Part shown: positions 1-7,201 of the stretch, one piece after another | Layout: each line of letters opens with the position of its first letter | Numbering within the stretch: the first letter of the stretch is position 1 | Assembly: GCF_000008565.1 (NCBI RefSeq) | Contig: NC_000959.1 | Span: 598 to 7,798 of the forward strand | Direction of reading: 5' to 3' | DNA length: 7,201 nucleotides | From: Deinococcus radiodurans R1 = ATCC 13939 = DSM 20539 | GTDB lineage: Bacteria > Deinococcota > Deinococci > Deinococcales > Deinococcaceae | Notes under the pieces: model-generated | Databases searched by the model: none | What the model was told of the DNA's origin: nothing | Seen by the model: the letters and a program-made list of their open reading frames with translations, nothing else | Made by a program: the position numbers and the translations under genes

Positions 1-127
1 ACGTTTTCTTTTCCACCGCGGTTACGTTTACAGCCACTTCATTCTGCCTGAAGGCAGTCCGGTTACAGGCAACCCGTCATCTCCTACTCCTACGGAACGG
101 TGGAATGCCGAATGGAAGCCGTACATT

Positions 128-1354
128 ATGTCACATCTTGTGCGCCTAGAGGACATTTCTCTCACCGGAATACCTGATGATGAACTGGGGCGTCTACTGC
201 AGGAAATAATTGAGCTGTGCGGATATGCCTGGGATGTCCACCACCGGCTCACCTATCCGGAAGTTGAAGCGTTCTACAACTGGTGCCGTATCAATATCGC
301 CGGAGTGACGAACGAAGAACTTCACGAGTTATTTCTTGGTCAGGATTTCCTCTCTTTAAGGCAAGCGCGTGGCTTTTGGAAACTGGCACATATTGCGTCC
401 TCGCTGACAGAGGGTTGCGTTGAGGAAGACTCTGATTGGGCAACACAACCACAGTTCCTTGCCGAGCTAAGTCAGTTCGTCTCTAAACATGGCCTATACC
501 TTACAACGTACTGCGATATCGGCCGTCCTTCCTGGGAAGAGGATCCTTCTGCAATCGTAGCCATAGTGAAGCGTTACATGGCAGCAAATCTGCCTGACCC
601 CTCCCTGCGAATCGAGCAACAGATCTTAAAACGCCAAGAACGATGTCAGGTACTTTCGGCGGCTTTACCAATCGACAAGCGGCCCGAATTTGATCGGCTG
701 TACCTCAGTGCGTTTTCGAGCCTGCATTTGCGTGAAGACCACGTCGAGTGGATAGAGCAGCGCCCTCTGGCGTTGCTCAGACGTGTCTGCAAGGCTTTTG
801 GCATCCGGTTGCACGCTCTTGGACTGATTGAAGACCCATTGGACTGCGCGTACTTTACGTTGACAGAACTGTACCAATTTGCGTGCGGCATTTCGATCGC
901 CCAGGCTCTAAGGGAACTCCCTGCTCGGAAGAGCAGTTACGAAAGTGACTTGAAGTTCAAACCTCCTAGATTTATCCGAGAAGCGCCACGTTCCAGTCCT
1001 GATGATGTCTCGAAGCTGTTGAAGGGCATGGGAATATCACGTGGAACAGTCAGCGGTCGCGTCTGCTCAGTACGTTCCGTGGGGGAAGCGTTTGAGAAGT
1101 TATCTTGGGGAGACATTCTGGTCTGCCCCGAAATCGGGCCTGACTGGACACCCTTGTTCTCTATCGCCGGAGGGCTGGTAATAGAATCATTTGCGGGCGG
1201 AATGCTGTCGCATGCGGCTCTGGTGGCACGTGAATACCGAATTCCCGCAATCCTTGGAATCAAGAGTGCCTGCTCGCTCCTTGATGGTCGATACGTGGAC
1301 TTGGATGGGACAACCGGTTTAGTGGAGATAGGGAGACGCTTTGAATCAATGTGA
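128..1354 (+). CDS. PEP-utilising enzyme family protein. An uncharacterised N-terminal region (~300 aa) is fused to a C-terminal phospho-histidine swivel (mobile) domain. It resembles the C-terminal part of rifampin-phosphotransferase/PEP-synthase-like dikinases but has no ATP-grasp domain in this ORF.
   Basis: 408-aa ORF. The last ~100 aa (GISRGTVSGRV...GDILVCPEIGPDWTPLF...GGMLSHAALVAREYRIPAILGI...DGTTGLVEI) fit the PEP-utilizers mobile-domain pattern, including the phospho-acceptor His (His362, codon 1211-1213). The segment FKPPRFI...LKGMGIS upstream of it is arranged as in RPH-like proteins. A weak SD (GGAAG, 114-118) lies 9 nt before ATG 128. Caveat: the frame has no stop codon back to nt 2, so the gene may be 5'-partial and start outside the window. 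Confidence 0.8.
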   Translation: MSHLVRLEDISLTGIPDDELGRLLQEIIELCGYAWDVHHRLTYPEVEAFYNWCRINIAGVTNEELHELFLGQDFLSLRQARGFWKLAHIASSLTEGCVEEDSDWATQPQFLAELSQFVSKHGLYLTTYCDIGRPSWEEDPSAIVAIVKRYMAANLPDPSLRIEQQILKRQERCQVLSAALPIDKRPEFDRLYLSAFSSLHLREDHVEWIEQRPLALLRRVCKAFGIRLHALGLIEDPLDCAYFTLTELYQFACGISIAQALRELPARKSSYESDLKFKPPRFIREAPRSSPDDVSKLLKGMGISRGTVSGRVCSVRSVGEAFEKLSWGDILVCPEIGPDWTPLFSIAGGLVIESFAGGMLSHAALVAREYRIPAILGIKSACSLLDGRYVDLDGTTGLVEIGRRFESM

Positions 1355-2204
1355 TGATTGCAAAAACTCACTTTTATGCGACAGTGGTTGTTTACCTTCA
1401 ATACTCCCACTAGAGTTGGTCGATCGCACAATGCTAGAACGAGTGGGTGGAAAAGCAGCAAATCTTGGAGAAATAGCTGGGATGGGATTTGAGATCCCAA
1501 ACGGATGTGTAATTACTATTGACGTTTTCGATGCTGCACTCAATGCAGTATCGTTACCAGTGGGAGGCAAGCGATACGGCTTTAGCTTTATGAATCTTCA
1601 CTTCCCGCAAGATCTTTATCCACATCTCAAGGAGTGGGCAGAGCGACTGGCTGGGCCCGTAGCGGTGCGTTCCTCTGCTGTTTTCGAAGATTCTGACCAG
1701 GCTTCGTACGCTGGCCAACTCTCCAGCATTCTTAATGTAGAGGGTTTTGACCAAATCGTCGTAGCCGTCGAAGAATGTTGGCACTCTATCTTTGGACAGC
1801 GTGTTAAGACGTACAGCAAGTTACATAACGATGGGATTGATAGGTTACGGATGGCCGTAATCGTGCAGGAACAGGTCTTTCCCAAAGCTGCTGGGGTAAT
1901 GTTCACCGCGCACCCGATCACTGGTAATCCTGAACACACTGTAATCGAAGCGGTAAGCGGCATCGGGAATAAACTTGTTGATGGAGTCGGCACACCTAAT
2001 CACTGGGTTATCGATAGAAATTCTCGTGAGGTGATTGAATCACACATTTTCAATTATGTAGATGTGTCTGAGGCTGAGTTGAAGGCCCTTCACGACCTCG
2101 GCATCAAAGTCCAAACTCTTTTCGGAAAACCCCAGGACATTGAATGGGCACTGAAAGATGGAAAACCTTTGGTCTTGCAGTGCCGTCCAATCACATCCAT
2201 GTAG
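1341..2204 (+). CDS. Stand-alone PEP/pyruvate-binding (PPDK_N) ATP-grasp nucleotide-binding domain protein, the likely partner subunit of the upstream swivel-domain protein.
   Basis: 287-aa ORF carrying the family motifs VGGKAANLGE, VAVRSSAVFEDS..SYAGQ..S.LNV, MAVIVQEQV...AGVMFTAHPITG...VIEAVSGIGNKLVDG and DIEWALKDGKPLVLQCRPIT. TTG start at 1341 is preceded by SD GGGAG (1331-1335, 5-nt spacer). It overlaps the ORF1 stop (1352-1354) by 14 nt. The alternative start ATG 1431 has no good SD. Confidence 0.85.
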   Translation: MNQCDDCKNSLLCDSGCLPSILPLELVDRTMLERVGGKAANLGEIAGMGFEIPNGCVITIDVFDAALNAVSLPVGGKRYGFSFMNLHFPQDLYPHLKEWAERLAGPVAVRSSAVFEDSDQASYAGQLSSILNVEGFDQIVVAVEECWHSIFGQRVKTYSKLHNDGIDRLRMAVIVQEQVFPKAAGVMFTAHPITGNPEHTVIEAVSGIGNKLVDGVGTPNHWVIDRNSREVIESHIFNYVDVSEAELKALHDLGIKVQTLFGKPQDIEWALKDGKPLVLQCRPITSM

Positions 2205-2396
2205 ATGTCGACATGGTTCTGTCAACTTTGTGTGTTGCGCTAAGCCGTGGGAAGCTGGGCGTGTCACTCCCACTCGGGCCAATAAACCTGCTGGCAACTT
2301 CGATCCTCAAGATCGTGGATAAAATCGTGGTCGGCCCGAGACCCTTTTAATCAGACGCGACAGTATGAATCGGACACCAAGCCTGCACGCAAATTA

Positions 2397-2421
2397 TTGA
2401 CTCCGGCACGACTTGGAGACG
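2397..2421 (+). repeat. IS630 left terminal inverted repeat (IRL).
   Basis: TTGACTCCGGCACGACTTGGAGACG compared with the reverse complement of 3436-3460, TTGACTCCGGCTTAGGTTGGAGACG. The first 11 and last 9 positions are identical and the central 5 differ. Confidence 0.85.
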
Positions 2422-2908
2422 CGAGGTAAACTTAGGAGGTGCTGCGCGTCTGGCGACCCTCCACTTTGACTCGTGACCAGCTGGAAGAACGACGGCTGTA
2501 TGCTCAGCAGCTCCTCGCCGCAGTGAGGTCAATGCCAAGGAGATCGCGGCTTCGGTCGGCGTTTCCGAAAGTACAGTCCGCACCTGGAAACAGCGTCTCC
2601 GAGAACGAGGCAGCCTCCAGGCCACCCGAGCGGCTGGGCCTTCACCGCGCCTGAGGCCAGAACAGCGCACGCAACTGGGGGAGATCCTGCGCGCAGGACC
2701 GCTGGCCGCCGGTTATCCCGACGCGCGTTGGACGACCTCCCGCGTGCGGGAGGTCATTGGCCTGCAATTTGAGGTGTGGTACCACGCCGATCACGTCAGG
2801 AAGTTGCTTCACCAGCTTGGCTTCAGTCCTCAGAAGCCAGAATCGCGTGCCTTGGAACGCGATGAGCAGGCGGTTCAGACCTGGGTCGAGCAGACGCTCC
2901 CCAGCTTG

Positions 2909-2917
2909 AAAAAAAAA
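2909..2917 (+). promoter_or_regulatory. A9 slippery homopolymer at the HTH/DDE junction of the IS630 transposase, a candidate recoding or transcriptional-slippage site.
   Basis: ttg-AAAAAAAAA-ggttga. The upstream frame stops at TGA 2921-2923. An A8 version would fuse LKKK to VEQGMTLVFLDESGF in one frame. Confidence 0.6.
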
Positions 2918-2930
2918 GGTTGAGCAGGGT

Positions 2931-3449
<519 letters not shown>

Positions 3450-3814
3450 GCCGGAGTCAATAACGTCGATTGAACCAGGGCTTAACCTAGAGAAGGCCCG
3501 ATTTTCCGCCATTTGCGATGAGTAATTTATGAGTCACCAAGAATCGTGCGAGAATGAGAGTTTGTGCAACGAATTTGGAGCGCTGATGCCAACAGCTTTT
3601 TGGGCTTGCAAAACTCTGTTGCACAACCGAAATCAATGGCAATTGGGTATTGCAAGCATCTAAAAAATGTGATTTGAGTTACTAGGGGAATATTTCGCAC
3701 GAACTCGATTGCGTTGGTAAATGGGGTACCGCGAGAGTAGGAACCAAAATCTGCGCTAAGGAGATATTCCTGCTGTAACTGTCATTATTACAGGATTTTT
3801 TCACAGAAGGCCTG

Positions 3815-3892
3815 ATGGAAACGGCAACGACTGGCACGGTATTTTGCTTGTCTTTAATACTTATCGCAGGAAAGACCGTACGTGTCAGTTAG
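3815..3892 (+). CDS. Hypothetical 25-aa hydrophobic peptide (METATTGTVFCLSLILIAGKTVRVS). Speculative.
   Basis: ATG 3815 is preceded by AGAAGG (3805-3810, 4-nt spacer). There is a single hydrophobic stretch, VFCLSLILIAG. It lies in otherwise non-coding DNA. No homology was recognised, and an ORF this short can easily arise by chance. Confidence 0.15.
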   Translation: METATTGTVFCLSLILIAGKTVRVS

Positions 3893-4165
3893 GCAAACGC
3901 CAGTCTCGTGCATGAGTGAGAAAAGATCCGTCTGGAACGGCGAATTCTGGCAGCTAAATCTCTTAGCGCAGGTTCCTGTTCTTACTCTCACGTCAGGCCA
4001 TTTCTTACTAAAAATTGCGAAGGTGTCAGAGACCCCGGCAAGCAGGATACAAGTGTAGCGAAGTAACCCAAAACTTGCAATGACTGACAATGAACTCGCT
4101 ATTCCAAAATATGGCGCATATCACTGTTAGCTTTGCATAGACTCTCAGGCAACCCCTGCACTGTG

Positions 4166-4723
4166 TCAGCTTTTTAGAGCCTCATAAAGCGTATCCCTGT
4201 TCACCCCCAGCTCACGGGCAAGAACCGTCTTTTTTTCCCCAGCAGCCACCCTTGCCCGGAGTTGTTCAACCTGCTCAGGGGTCAGCGCCCGTTTGCGGCC
4301 CTTGTACTTCCCGGCCTGCTTTGCTTTAGCGATGCCTTCCCGCTGATTTTCAAGGTTCTGCGCCCGCAGGAACTCGGCCACCGCGCCCAGCATGGTCAGC
4401 AGCAGGGTATTCATCGGGTTGTCCTCACTAGTGAAGACCACGCCTTCGCGCTGGAATTCCACCCGCACCCCGCGCCCCGACAGCTCGGTGACGATACGCC
4501 GCAGGTCGTCCACATTGCGGGCCAGCCTGTCCATCGAGTGAACAATCACGGTATCGCCTTCGCGGACGTAGGCCAGCAGCTCCTGCAATCTGGGCCGTCT
4601 GGCATCCTTGCCTGATGCCTTGTCTTCAAAGATTCTGTCCAGCTCTACACCATCCAACTGACGGGCGGTGTTTTGGTCTGTGGTGGATACCCGGATATAG
4701 CCGACGCGCTGCCCTCTGGTCAT
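4166..4723 (-). CDS. Small serine recombinase (resolvase/invertase family, Tn3/gamma-delta TnpR-like) with a C-terminal HTH.
   Basis: 185 aa from ATG 4721-4723, preceded by SD GAGGG with a 4-nt spacer. Motifs: RVGYIRVSTTDQ (catalytic Ser), SMDRLARN, AEFLRAQNLENQREGIAKAKQAGKYKGRKRAL, and C-terminal HTH KTVLARELGVNRDTLYEAL. The ORF track's longer 206-aa version (to 4786) adds 21 non-conserved residues and overlaps the res-like sites. Confidence 0.92.
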   Translation of the reverse strand: MTRGQRVGYIRVSTTDQNTARQLDGVELDRIFEDKASGKDARRPRLQELLAYVREGDTVIVHSMDRLARNVDDLRRIVTELSGRGVRVEFQREGVVFTSEDNPMNTLLLTMLGAVAEFLRAQNLENQREGIAKAKQAGKYKGRKRALTPEQVEQLRARVAAGEKKTVLARELGVNRDTLYEALKS

Positions 4724-4737
4724 GCTGCCCTCTATTT

Positions 4738-4866
4738 TGTCGGGATAGGGTTTAGAGTTGCCCCGACATATGTCGGAATATAGCAAAATGGATTCTATTC
4801 CGACACTCGGATGCCGATTTCATCAGGAGGCTTGCTTGTCGGGAATGGGTATACCTCAGAACGACA
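4738..4866. promoter_or_regulatory. Putative res site: three resolvase-binding subsites, each an inverted pair of TGTCG half-sites.
   Basis: Half-sites: TGTCGGGATA (4738-4747, +), TGTCGGGGCA (4759-4768, -), TGTCGGAATA (4771-4780, +), TGTCGGAATA (4796-4805, -), TGTCGGGAAT (4837-4846, +), TGTCGTTCTG (4857-4866, -). Pairs span 31, 35 and 30 bp. The pair farthest from the resolvase gene is centred on AT (4851-4852) within the palindrome GGTATACC. This compares with Tn3/gamma-delta res, which has three subsites of 28, 34 and 25 bp, a TGTCY-type half-site, site I distal to tnpR and crossover at a central AT. Confidence 0.6.
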
Positions 4867-4873
4867 AAAGGAT

Positions 4874-5608
4874 TTACCTCACTGTGCCAAGCAGGCGGCT
4901 CACATTTTCTTTCACGATTCGTTCTACCTCGCTGGCGGGAATTTGCCAAATCTTGCTCAGTCCTTCTACCACCGATTTGACGTCCCAAGGAAGCGCAGCC
5001 TGCCCATCAAGTTCGAGGAATGGCCCATCCGTTTCGGTCAACACTCGATCCCTTGGCATAGACCGGATTAAAGCTGCACCTTTTTGGGTTCTCACCATGG
5101 TGGGACCTACTGAAAACCAACACCCCAGGGAAATGGCCCGGCGCAGTTCTGTAACCGAGCCCGAGTACCAATGCAGGATGGGGGTACCGCTGCGTGGGTT
5201 GGCCTCGAGACAGTTCAAGACCTCGCTCTCAGCGCGGCGGCTATGAATAGAGAGGATTCGGCCTCCATGATCCTCGCAGCGGCGCAGGATGTGCTGAAAG
5301 ACAGCGAACTGCTGAGTCCAGGTGCCACGCAAGCTGGGACTGCCGTCGAGCCCTACTTCTCCCACGAAGCGTGTTTCGGGAAGATAACGGTCAAACCATG
5401 GGAGATCGGCAGCTCGTTCGCTCACCACCTCAGGATGAAAGCCCAGGGCAGTCCACACGTGCGGACGCCCAGCGGCCAAAGCCAGAGTTCCCCGCCACGC
5501 AGCTGGCGTCGTTGTAACCGAAAGGACAGTGAGTTGCCTCTCTTCGCATGCCCGGGCCACGGCCACAGGGTCTGGATACAGATCTAGGTGAACGTGAAAG
5601 TCAATCAT
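4874..5608 (-). CDS. qatD: TatD-family metal-dependent DNase/hydrolase; QatD of a Qat anti-phage system.
   Basis: 244 aa with TatD signature positions: MIDFHVHLD (HxH), GEVGLD, ILSIHSR, ILHWYSGS, CWFSVG, LTETDGPF. The start ATG 5606-5608 overlaps the stop of the upstream QueC-like gene (ATGA). The order QueC-like gene then TatD gene matches qatC-qatD. Confidence 0.85.
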   Translation of the reverse strand: MIDFHVHLDLYPDPVAVARACEERQLTVLSVTTTPAAWRGTLALAAGRPHVWTALGFHPEVVSERAADLPWFDRYLPETRFVGEVGLDGSPSLRGTWTQQFAVFQHILRRCEDHGGRILSIHSRRAESEVLNCLEANPRSGTPILHWYSGSVTELRRAISLGCWFSVGPTMVRTQKGAALIRSMPRDRVLTETDGPFLELDGQAALPWDVKSVVEGLSKIWQIPASEVERIVKENVSRLLGTVR

Positions 5609-6876
5609 GGCACCTTTAGGAGGCGGTGAAGTGCCCCCAACTCCTCCATAGAACGCTTCACCATAGCCTCCATTGCTGCCCGGTCGCCGATTCGCCGGTC
5701 ACTCAAGGAAGCTCCCAAAAACCGCTGCACACCTTCTTGCTCCACGGTGATGATCGCCAAGGCCAAGGAGCGGACATCATCGAAGAGTGCGTGGCTGTCG
5801 TCATTCTGGCCTAGAGGATAGAAGACATATTCCGTGCGGTCTGGCTGGCCCCAGGCGAGGAAGGCCGCCCGACGAACCTGACATGGGATGCACCGACCAC
5901 AGTGCTTATAACCGAATCGTCGATAACGACCACAACTGGTTGTGGCGCTCGCCCAGCGGCTCAGCACGGTCTGATTTGCGCATTCTGTGAGCATTTCGCC
6001 CTTCGTCTTGAGGGCATACGGGTTGATCAGCGCTACGTTGAGGCCCACAGCTTGTAGGACTGCTTGAAGCTGTTGCAAGAAGACGGGATGGGCTGTCCGG
6101 GTACTCAAACTGCCGATGCGCATGGGTGTCAGAGGGGGATTCAGGGCAATAAACCCATTCTCATTGATATATATCGGCACTGCCCGTGCCTGCTGAAAAC
6201 GTGTCGTGGCAGTGGCCGCTAAAACCGCATACGCCAAGAAGATCAGCGTCCGTGAACGTTGTGAGTCCTCGCCTGGGGTCGGGCATTCAGCCGCGTGATT
6301 CAGTTGCAGATGGGTCGTGCGGCCAAGGTCAGTGGCGATCTCCCTTTGCTTAGCGGCGTCTCCTGCGACCAGTTGACTCACGGCAAGGGGATTGTGCCCT
6401 TCAGCCACTAGGTCGATCATCCCTACCAAACTGTCCAATCCCCCTGAGAGCAAGGCCACGCAGTCTTCAATAAGCGGGCCAATAGGTTCTTTAGGTTGGT
6501 ACTGGTATCCGCCTGGGCTGAACGTGATGCTCCAGCGATCCGTCGTCAGGTAGGCGAGCGCCTCTTCCAGCGCCCGGGCTTGAGCATTCCATAGGTCAGC
6601 ATCTGTTACAGAGATGGTTAAGGACAGTTCACGCGTCCACCCATCTGGGCTTTCGCTCCTGGGAGAGGAAAGATCCGCAGCTAAAACGGACAGCGTAAAG
6701 CTCAGAAAATCCCAGGATTGGCTCGGAATCGGCCACCTCTTTCGAATCACCGCTTCCCGGAGGCTGGCACCGATGCCGACTTGATGAGTGTTCAGTCGTC
6801 GGCCATAGAGAGCAACAATTGTTGACCCGTTCGAGACCGCTGCGGGTGGGTTGGGGGTACACAGGAAATGTCTCAT
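5605..6876 (-). CDS. qatC: QueC-like PP-loop ATPase (7-cyano-7-deazaguanine synthase-like) with a ~130-aa N-terminal extension; QatC of a Qat anti-phage system.
   Basis: 423 aa. PP-loop motif SGGLDS at residues 144-149 (nt 6430-6447). QueC-type zinc cluster C315-x10-C326-x2-C329-x2-C332 (nt 5881-5934). ATGA overlaps with both the upstream and downstream genes. A TatD gene lies immediately downstream. Confidence 0.8.
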   Translation of the reverse strand: MRHFLCTPNPPAAVSNGSTIVALYGRRLNTHQVGIGASLREAVIRKRWPIPSQSWDFLSFTLSVLAADLSSPRSESPDGWTRELSLTISVTDADLWNAQARALEEALAYLTTDRWSITFSPGGYQYQPKEPIGPLIEDCVALLSGGLDSLVGMIDLVAEGHNPLAVSQLVAGDAAKQREIATDLGRTTHLQLNHAAECPTPGEDSQRSRTLIFLAYAVLAATATTRFQQARAVPIYINENGFIALNPPLTPMRIGSLSTRTAHPVFLQQLQAVLQAVGLNVALINPYALKTKGEMLTECANQTVLSRWASATTSCGRYRRFGYKHCGRCIPCQVRRAAFLAWGQPDRTEYVFYPLGQNDDSHALFDDVRSLALAIITVEQEGVQRFLGASLSDRRIGDRAAMEAMVKRSMEELGALHRLLKVP

Positions 6877-7199
6877 CCCTTTGCAAACACCTCCATGGTT
6901 AGTTCAAGAGCGCGTTGCGTGACGGCCTGCACGCTTGGAGCAGTAATTGCCTGTCCCTGGCGGCGCAACTCATCGAAGGCACCAGAGACGGTCGCTTGGA
7001 CGTAGTCCCGTGCTTGACGTAGCCGATCTGTCAGCATCAAGGCACTTACTCCCTGTTGCCTAAGCGCCTGGCCGACATCGAGTTCGATGTGGAAGAAGAC
7101 GTCTTGTGCTACGTACAGTTCTACGACTAGCTCGAGCTGGTCAGCAGTTAATGCAAGCAGGTCGGCCTGTGGGTGTTGGATCAGCAGTTCGGACAGCGC
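6873..7199 (-). CDS. 3' end (108 codons plus stop) of a gene truncated by the window edge. It occupies the qatB position upstream of qatC.
   Basis: Open minus-strand frame from 7199 to TGA 6873-6875, translating as ALSELLIQHPQADLLALTADQLELVVELYVAQDVFFHIELDVGQALRQQGVSALMLTDRLRQARDYVQATVSGAFDELRRQGQAITAPSVQAVTQRALELTMEVFAKG. It is not in the ORF track because its start lies outside the window. Its stop overlaps the qatC ATG (ATGA). The QatB identity is positional inference only; I recognise no motif. Confidence 0.6.
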   Translation of the reverse strand, partial: ALSELLIQHPQADLLALTADQLELVVELYVAQDVFFHIELDVGQALRQQGVSALMLTDRLRQARDYVQATVSGAFDELRRQGQAITAPSVQAVTQRALELTMEVFAKG

Positions 7200-7201
7200 A
7201 G

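Follow-up and report, generated by a model that had tools for sequence, protein, structure and literature searches.

Phenylphosphate synthase (PpsAB), known as proteins 1 and 2 of Thauera aromatica and present also in Geobacter and Ferroglobus, is a dikinase made of two chains: protein 1 bears the catalytic His569 and protein 2 bears the PPDK_N domain, and the reaction follows a ping-pong course via phosphohistidine, with AMP and inorganic phosphate (Pi) as products. A third protein, PpsC, stimulates PpsAB. CreHI of Corynebacterium glutamicum, AcvAB of Sphingobium SYK-6 (operon acvABCDEF) and HpeHI, the two-component hydroxyphenylethanone dikinase of Rhodococcus rhodochrous GD02 (PMC12167813, PMC9618137), are likewise two-protein enzymes in which the gene of the His/acceptor subunit comes first. 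The characterised aromatic kinases share ~40-46% pairwise identity. For HpeHI, a 2025 study solved the structure of HpeI, an ATP-grasp protein homologous to that of rifampin phosphotransferase (RPH), modelled HpeH as the RPH rifampin-binding and swivel domains, gave the catalytic His motif as T/SxxGGxxxH, found HpeH H581Q inactive and showed that HpeH by itself moves phosphate between acceptors (PMC12167813). Here we describe a pair of overlapping genes, ORF1 and ORF2, that likely encode an enzyme of this kind. They lie at one end of a 7,201-nt stretch of DNA (the window) from Deinococcus radiodurans R1, which is 100% identical to plasmid CP1 of that strain and occurs in 14 deposited plasmid records.

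The pair displays the features by which the PpsAB/CreHI/AcvAB/HpeHI type is recognised, namely a subunit consisting of an ATP-grasp domain only (ORF2), a subunit with acceptor-binding and swivel domains (ORF1), a catalytic His within T/SxxGGxxxH, and adjacent genes with the His subunit first. We consider it likely that ORF1 and ORF2 together form a two-component ATP-dependent small-molecule dikinase of the RPH-like branch, related in kind to these four enzymes, and that its acceptor is a product or an intermediate of a pathway resembling those for ribosomally synthesized and post-translationally modified peptides (RiPPs), encoded by the operon to which the pair belongs. The order of a His protein followed by a PPDK_N protein is that of PpsAB, CreHI and AcvAB. 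In contrast, the acceptors of those enzymes are phenol, 4-cresol or acetovanillone, and their genes reside in catabolic operons. HpeHI too is composed of a separate RPH-type acceptor and swivel protein and an ATP-grasp protein, hpeH precedes hpeI, and its activity needs both; however, HpeH is ~71 kDa and HpeI ~40 kDa, compared with lengths of 523 aa (ORF1) and 287 aa (ORF2), and the hpe genes are part of a catabolic cluster with biotin carboxylase and phosphatase, whereas ORF1/ORF2 belong to an operon with radical S-adenosylmethionine (rSAM), TldD, major facilitator superfamily (MFS) and cytochrome P450-like genes. The residue preceding the catalytic His is Cys in HpeH and Ser in ORF1, the latter as in CreH and PpsA. 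The architecture, two chains and the gene of the His subunit first, is already published and not new. An earlier interpretation of the window from its letters alone (the sequence-only reading) had set the arrangement apart from canonical members of the family, single chains with the ATP-grasp domain first; neither its novelty nor a single-chain rule for the family stands in view of PpsAB, CreHI, AcvAB and HpeHI. Its core proposal holds: a two-chain enzyme encoded by tightly coupled cistrons, the His-swivel/acceptor chain first and the ATP-grasp chain second.

Domains and gene models of ORF1 and ORF2

The swivel domain was correctly placed by the sequence-only reading at the C-terminus of ORF1, where Pfam detects PF00391 (PEP-utilizers, mobile domain; PEP, phosphoenolpyruvate) at residues 328-397 of the 408-aa model (E = 8.6e-19); this domain aligns with RPH residues 786-865. 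The preceding ~300 aa had been described as devoid of motifs and assigned to the acceptor-binding slot. The assignment was right and the description was not: the precomputed Pfam annotation of the ORF1 product includes PF27448 (Rph_4th), and the AlphaFold2 model of ORF1 (mean pLDDT 87.2, predicted TM-score 0.83), computed for the 459-aa form, i.e. without the first 64 of 523 residues, has Listeria RPH (5fbt and 5hv1) as its top Foldseek matches in the Protein Data Bank (PDB), with E ~1e-16 and a query TM-score of 0.73 over ~450-470 columns, at ~20% identity. Judged from this model, the helical region of ORF1 is homologous to the rifampin-binding domain of RPH. In NCBIfam, stretch-encoded ORF1 residues ~148-443 align to the last ~300 residues of the RPH, PigC, RedH and PRK06241 'PEP synthase' models. 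The catalytic His, already pointed out in the sequence-only reading as H362, is His477 of the full-length protein. It is the counterpart of the catalytic H825 of RPH, is invariant in homologue alignments of 13 and of 27 sequences, and stands in the motif S469-F-A-G-G-M-L-S-H477, which fits the published T/SxxGGxxxH.

RPH of Listeria monocytogenes (5fbt, 5hv1, 5hv6) has the same three domains overall, with H825 corresponding to H477, but it is one 867-aa chain that starts with the ATP-grasp domain. The PigC/RedH prodigiosin ligases (NF052631, NF052632), RPH-like enzymes of the dikinase family that serve biosynthesis, are among the best NCBIfam matches of both ORFs, with 95 bits for ORF1 and 165 bits for ORF2 against a cutoff of 1350. 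Unlike the D. radiodurans pair, however, they are single ~880-aa chains that condense pyrroles, and no pyrrole-pathway genes lie beside ORF1/ORF2. Identity with PEP synthase or PPDK was considered and rejected because the PEP/pyruvate TIM-barrel PF02896 has no Pfam match in ORF1 or ORF2; the two proteins score 64 and 155 bits with TIGR01418 against a cutoff of 740, and in Foldseek the structures of PPDK, PEP synthase, Enzyme I and pyruvate kinase fit the ORF1 model only in the ~125-residue swivel.

The start of ORF1 differs from the one given in RefSeq/PGAP and in the sequence-only reading, both of which begin the protein at ATG 128 (408 aa). The frame is open from window nt 2, with no stop 5' of ATG 128, and on the plasmid its first codon is a GTG 217 nt upstream of window nt 1, for a protein of 523 aa (L001:8443-10014; window nt 1 is nt 8661 of locus L001, from CP031503, and nt 16001 of L011, from NZ_CP015084.1). 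This GTG overlaps the stop of the P450-like gene before it (caGTGAac, a GTGA overlap). The 115 residues gained over the 408-aa model are kept in homologues: with stand-alone homologues, which are 480-580 aa long, the alignment covers 93-98% of the 523-aa protein, and positions upstream of Met-128 are conserved, such as W32, a CP.P.GPLAQS block and HRGY.Y. When 1.84 billion representatives were searched exhaustively with HMMER, stretch-encoded residue 1 corresponded to ~residue 58 of the best full-length matches, and residue ~31 to ~residue 100 of most other matches; the family had ~7,200 representatives at E<=1e-10. The start at ATG 128 loses this conserved sequence. Other gene callers give ORF1 a length of 459 or 523 aa and ORF2 one of 287 aa. 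As for the possibility that ORF1 runs upstream into an ATP-grasp domain of its own, it extends only through the acceptor domain and is preceded by the P450-like gene; no ATP-grasp domain was detected in the full ORF1 frame, upstream part included, and Pfam on ORF1 gives PF00391 only.

ORF2 has PF01326 (PPDK_N) as its sole Pfam domain (E = 2.7e-55). Profile searches have thus recovered both domains that the sequence-only reading had named, PF00391 in ORF1 and PF01326 in ORF2, and the latter protein was rightly taken for an ATP-grasp subunit. Its PDB matches include RPH's ATP-grasp domain (5hv6, 3.7e-32), PEP synthases, and 9goj (1.3e-30), a 387-aa chain named 'phosphoenolpyruvate synthase' by its depositors, which matches no more strongly than RPH does; this suggests that ORF2 is not specifically close to either RPH or 9goj. 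The C-terminal boundary of ORF2, ...Q-x-R-P-I-T, is that of the RPH ATP-grasp construct 5hv6. In an alignment of 59 homologues, ORF2 keeps 61 of the 75 columns with at least 90% conservation, and the conserved residues retained include G36-G37-K38, R110, E116-D117, Q126, E268, Q280 and R282. PHROGs gave a weak match to a generic 'kinase' family only. The ATP-grasp domain is about as similar to fused forms as to either split type (27-40% identity), and therefore similarity alone cannot date the split.

For ORF2, homology confirms the start at TTG 1341 proposed in the sequence-only reading. All 59 aligned homologues have an N-terminal beta-strand, which in ORF2 is ILPLELV, ahead of GGKAANLG; between an in-frame stop at 1329-1331 and this strand, no ATG, GTG or TTG occurs other than TTG 1341. 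The RefSeq start, ATG 1431 (257 aa), deletes this conserved strand, and for that reason we prefer the TTG 1341 model. The first part of the gene, nt 1341-1400, encodes a ~17-residue N-terminal extension beyond the homologues, with four cysteines (MNQCDDCKNSLLCDSGC), which the sister protein at locus L018 does not have. The extension could be a small metal-binding knuckle or a mere leader.

The junction of the two cistrons is as described before: the ORFs lie on the same strand and overlap by 14 nt, a GGGAG precedes the ORF2 start, and ORF1 stops at 1352-1354. The overlap together with the Shine-Dalgarno-like sequence makes coupled translation of ORF1 and ORF2 probable; the junction shows no site resembling a promoter or a terminator. 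By homology with the characterised enzymes, ORF2 would bind MgATP in its ATP-grasp cleft, and the beta-phosphoryl group would pass from the bound ATP to His477 of the ORF1 swivel with release of AMP and Pi. The swivel domain would then turn back to the helical acceptor-binding domain of ORF1 itself, where the phosphoryl group would move to a hydroxyl of the bound acceptor.

Gene arrangements among relatives

The closest homologue of ORF1 is P0002 (locus L018; 36% identity), which has in common with it a two-residue SFAGG insertion. After P0002 comes a 243-aa PPDK_N gene, which starts with TTG and overlaps it by 17 nt (11 nt if counted from an alternative ATG), so that the L018 sister pair has the same gene order as ORF1/ORF2, to which it is 36-39% identical. 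Three unrelated contigs carry the closest homologues of ORF2 (~272 aa, 38-40% identity), each of them downstream of a ~577-aa Rph_4th and swivel gene in the same operon; a GntR gene separates the two in all three contigs, joined by a cyclase gene in two of them.

We surveyed 80 genome loci collected with an ORF1-family profile. They hold 88 ORF1-like genes, whose arrangements were tallied approximately by hand. Canonical fused proteins account for about 23 of the 88 genes, and split genes with the ATP-grasp gene directly upstream for 16. The ATP-grasp gene lies directly downstream, with gaps of ~20 nt or overlaps, in five genes at four loci, and for about 40 genes the flank available (up to 10 kb, less on short contigs) contains no ATP-grasp gene. 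The His-first adjacency recurs, as one of several arrangements. The sequence-only reading had raised co-occurrence of the two genes in other genomes as a point to check; it is seen in the closest pair, at L018, where gene order, TTG start and an overlap all recur. Three more distant homologues from a protein search, P0004, P0005 and P0008 (26-31% identity), have no adjacent ATP-grasp gene. Stand-alone acceptor and swivel proteins with no ATP-grasp gene within 10 kb were seen at L012-L014, L020, L024, L028, L067, L100, L101 and others. Three ORF1-like genes stand in tandem at L067, two are followed by one ATP-grasp gene at L054, and one lies beside a full-length fused dikinase at L101.

Further members of the ORF1/P0002 clade were not detected in JGI metagenome contigs, either by peptide patterns or with back-translated FAGGMLSHAA.VAREY, and a tblastn search of 72,556 plasmids returned only the D. 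radiodurans copies and distant relatives (at most 32% identity).

The ten-gene operon and the acceptor

ORF1 and ORF2 are the last two cistrons of ten same-strand genes (Table 1), a setting that the sequence-only reading had no way to see. Neighbouring genes either overlap, by no more than 14 nt, or are separated by ~30 nt at most, and all ten reading frames are intact. ISDra5, an insertion sequence (IS) of the IS5 family, abuts the first gene in every record checked, and ISDra3 follows ORF2. The P450-like protein encoded just before ORF1 has an intact Cys-ligand loop, and its alignment with normal P450s begins at ~residue 90 of the latter; a word-indexed search of 5.8 billion proteins found no homologue of it besides itself.

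Since the pair ends a ten-gene operon of biosynthetic type, its acceptor is most likely a product or an intermediate of that pathway, and phosphorylation may serve as a tailoring, activation or self-protection step of a peptide (RiPP-like) pathway. Going further, we propose tentatively, and with low probability, that the dikinase tailors a cryptic RiPP-like product, in which case it would phosphorylate the peptide or a pathway intermediate on the hydroxyl of Tyr, Ser or Thr. The phosphate might then be a handle for the P450-like enzyme (cf. CreHI/CreJ), or a pro-drug or self-protection mark that is removed at export. We found no literature linking PEP-utilizing enzymes to RiPPs or to rSAM clusters.

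The P450-like gene also bears on an alternative, according to which the pair would be an aromatic-compound catabolic kinase of the PpsAB/CreHI/HpeHI type acting on a free phenolic, with the P450-like protein acting on the phosphorylated product. CreJ is a P450 that acts on a phosphorylated substrate, and the Cre pathway lists CreHI with CreJEF. In the present operon the P450-like gene is coupled to ORF1 by the GTGA overlap, the characterised phenol kinases have the same architecture and gene order, and the Ser-His pair is shared with CreH and PpsA. Moreover, the closest ORF2 homologues are found in catabolic-looking operons (GntR, cyclase, MR_MLE, FAA hydrolase, aldehyde dehydrogenase, molybdopterin dehydrogenase). 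However, the ten-gene operon is without carboxylase, phosphatase, dehydrogenase and ring-cleavage genes and has instead genes for rSAM/SPASM, B12-rSAM and TldD/E-like proteins and an exporter; the similarity of the P450-like protein to CreJ (5gwe, 5xjn) is limited to the generic Cys-ligand loop and equals that to many other P450s; and the subunits are much shorter than those of the 71/40-kDa phenol kinases. A catabolic role on free phenolics appears unlikely to us.

The RPH-like features could also point to a kinase that confers resistance to xenobiotics or antibiotics (rifamycin or another antibiotic) and is carried on a mobile plasmid segment, one of the two functions suggested in the sequence-only reading. 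RPH is the best structural match of ORF1, and RPH, PigC, RedH and PRK06241 provide the best NCBIfam matches. The segment is flanked by IS elements and, as had been noticed before, the pair lies in a block of lower GC content (47% for ORF2 and 52% for ORF1, with a mean of 53% for the whole operon, vs 54-60% for the neighbouring Qat and IS genes). Yet ORF1 and ORF2 reach only 91.3 and 162.6 bits with the RPH models (NF041857, NF000283) against a cutoff of 999, identity to RPH is ~20%, and the pair is embedded in a biosynthetic-type operon rather than forming a stand-alone cassette. Furthermore, rpoB mutation assays routinely select rare mutants by plating wild-type D. radiodurans R1 on rifampicin at 50 ug/ml, a concentration that kills the wild type; this indirectly marks R1 as rifampicin-sensitive. 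The proposal is not supported for rifamycin, and a resistance kinase of any kind seems to us very improbable.

Several observations weigh against a dikinase serving the product of its own operon. No precursor peptide was recognised in the operon, and an IS5 element abuts its first gene. A second copy of the operon was found neither in JGI contigs nor in the 72,556 plasmids nor through the P450-like protein, and the proposed link between operon and acceptor comes from one genome; the L018 sister pair adjoins a different gene. As to the enzyme itself, the characterised subunits, of ~71 and ~40 kDa, clearly exceed ORF1 (523 aa) and ORF2 (287 aa) in length, and Asn210 of ORF2 (nt 1968-1970, GIGN) replaces the at least 90% conserved Glu of the GLGE motif, which the L018 sister ATP-grasp protein retains. 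Two near relatives of ORF1 from the exhaustive search have other surroundings: P0243 has no adjacent ATP-grasp gene, and P0245 adjoins a full-length fused dikinase.

Some of these points would also fit a decaying remnant, that is, intact ORFs that have lost their function within an IS-disrupted cluster. There are IS elements at both ends of the operon and no recognised precursor gene, the P450-like protein is short (333 aa) and found no homologue, ORF2 has the E-to-N change in GLGE, and one plasmid CP1 (pCP1) record is without the P450-like gene and most of ORF1. Against decay stand the ten intact frames with their tight overlaps, the retention of all checked catalytic residues, the identity of nt 1-2400 across 12 D. 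radiodurans plasmid records (one further record is near-identical), and the L018 sister pair, which at 36-39% identity retains the same features. We hold loss of function to be highly improbable, and prefer to see in ORF1/ORF2 a working dikinase. The divergent record, NZ_CP038986.1 (43,155 bp; loci L102 and L103), is pCP1 of an R1 sub-strain, in which a point shortly past the MFS gene is joined to window nt 1251, and it is ~2.35 kb below the 45,503-bp records in length. The gap is either a genuine laboratory deletion or an artefact at the point where the record was circularised.

Flanking genes and implications

Beyond ORF2 the window contains mobile and defence genes (Table 1). The ISDra3 transposase is represented in the window by separate ORFs, 2744-2923 (HTH_33) and 2931-3449 (DDE_3), and by a single 335-aa product in some records; it is probably frameshifted or subject to programmed frameshifting. 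Between ISDra3 and the resolvase gene, nt 3464-4165 form a region of ~700 nt with a GC content of about 45-47% and only short unannotated ORFs, which could hold the res site of the resolvase. An Rfam scan of the whole window gave no families.

The second function put forward in the sequence-only reading, a phosphotransfer module of a defence or mobile island, is to be judged from this neighbourhood. A complete QatABCD operon has its qatD end ~2.7 kb away from the pair and is itself followed by an Eco29kI-family nuclease gene; the pair could in principle act in anti-phage defence with or beside QatABCD. However, PADLOC-DB 2.0, which recognises QatC and QatD with scores of 5e-89 and 1e-91, has no match for ORF1 or ORF2. 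The Qat genes are on the opposite strand, past a complete IS630 element and the resolvase gene, and the pair is linked translationally to the biosynthetic genes upstream. Nor does a Qat or other defence context recur in any inspected homologue locus, where the sole candidates for defence-type genes are a MazE/PIN pair and a SIR2-domain gene (L014). We give a defence function almost no credence.

Table 1. Features of the window and of the operon entering it; positions are those of the window unless L011 or a record is named
Feature	Position	Strand	Basis or remark
ORF1, 3' part (residues 74-523 of 523)	1..1354	+	Frame open to nt 2; full-plasmid ORF; counterpart of HpeH, PpsA, CreH, AcvA
Acceptor-binding all-helical domain of ORF1, RPH rifampin-binding type (PF27448, Rph_4th)	1..955, continues upstream	+	Pfam, AlphaFold2/Foldseek
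Phospho-His swivel domain of ORF1	1016..1330	+	PF00391 match at nt 1109-1318; beta-rich model residues 348-452
Catalytic His codon (H477 of 523 aa, H362 in 408-aa numbering)	1211..1213	+	Aligns with RPH H825
Shine-Dalgarno-like GGGAG	1331..1335	+	Sequence; 5 nt before ORF2 TTG, within the end of ORF1; presumed role
ORF1/ORF2 overlap, 14 nt	1341..1354	+	Sequence; TTG 1341-1343 to TGA 1352-1354
ORF2, 287 aa, PPDK_N nucleotide-binding subunit	1341..2204	+	PF01326; counterpart of HpeI, PpsB, CreI, AcvB
Ten-gene operon	L011 6147-18204 (NZ_CP015084.1 17142-29199)		Final ~2.2 kb within the window
Operon gene 1, rSAM/SPASM enzyme			Best NCBIfam: heme b synthase AhbD, peptide maturases such as WgkB
Operon gene 2, 113-aa protein
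Operon gene 3, B12-type rSAM enzyme
Operon gene 4, NodU-like carbamoyltransferase
Operon gene 5, TldD-like protease			HExxxH (HELIGH)
Operon gene 6, degenerate paralogue of TldD-like protein
Operon gene 7, MFS transporter
Operon gene 8, P450-like protein, 333 aa	L011 14785-15786		Ends 214 nt upstream of window nt 1; intact FGxGxHxCxG loop
Operon genes 9 and 10, ORF1 and ORF2			See above
ISDra3 (IS630 family)	2394-3463		Inverted repeats 2394-2421 and 3436-3463, 28 nt, 82% complementary
Serine recombinase/resolvase gene, then QatABCD, then Eco29kI-family restriction endonuclease	4166-7201 and beyond (L011 20167-26499)	-
QatD	4874-5608	-
QatC	5605-6876	-
QatB	from 6873	-
QatA (KAP-NTPase)	outside the window	-

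In summary, ORF1/ORF2 is likely a new, compact member of a known two-component dikinase subfamily, located in an unusual biosynthetic-type operon; its architecture adds little to what has been described. The analysis corrects the gene models of both D. radiodurans genes, whose RefSeq starts remove conserved sequence, and brings to light an unstudied, IS-flanked, RiPP-like ten-gene operon on plasmid CP1 of a model organism for which, to our knowledge, no natural products are known. The diversity of the family, which includes fused forms, split forms with either gene first and acceptor/swivel proteins that lack an ATP-grasp gene next to them, raises the question of what phosphorylates these orphans. 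If the kinase acts on the product of its operon, the substrate range of such enzymes would extend beyond phenolic catabolites and rifamycins. Should the tentative proposal of peptide tailoring be true, the swivel mechanism of PEP dikinases would operate in the maturation of a peptide natural product, a use that we have not found described.

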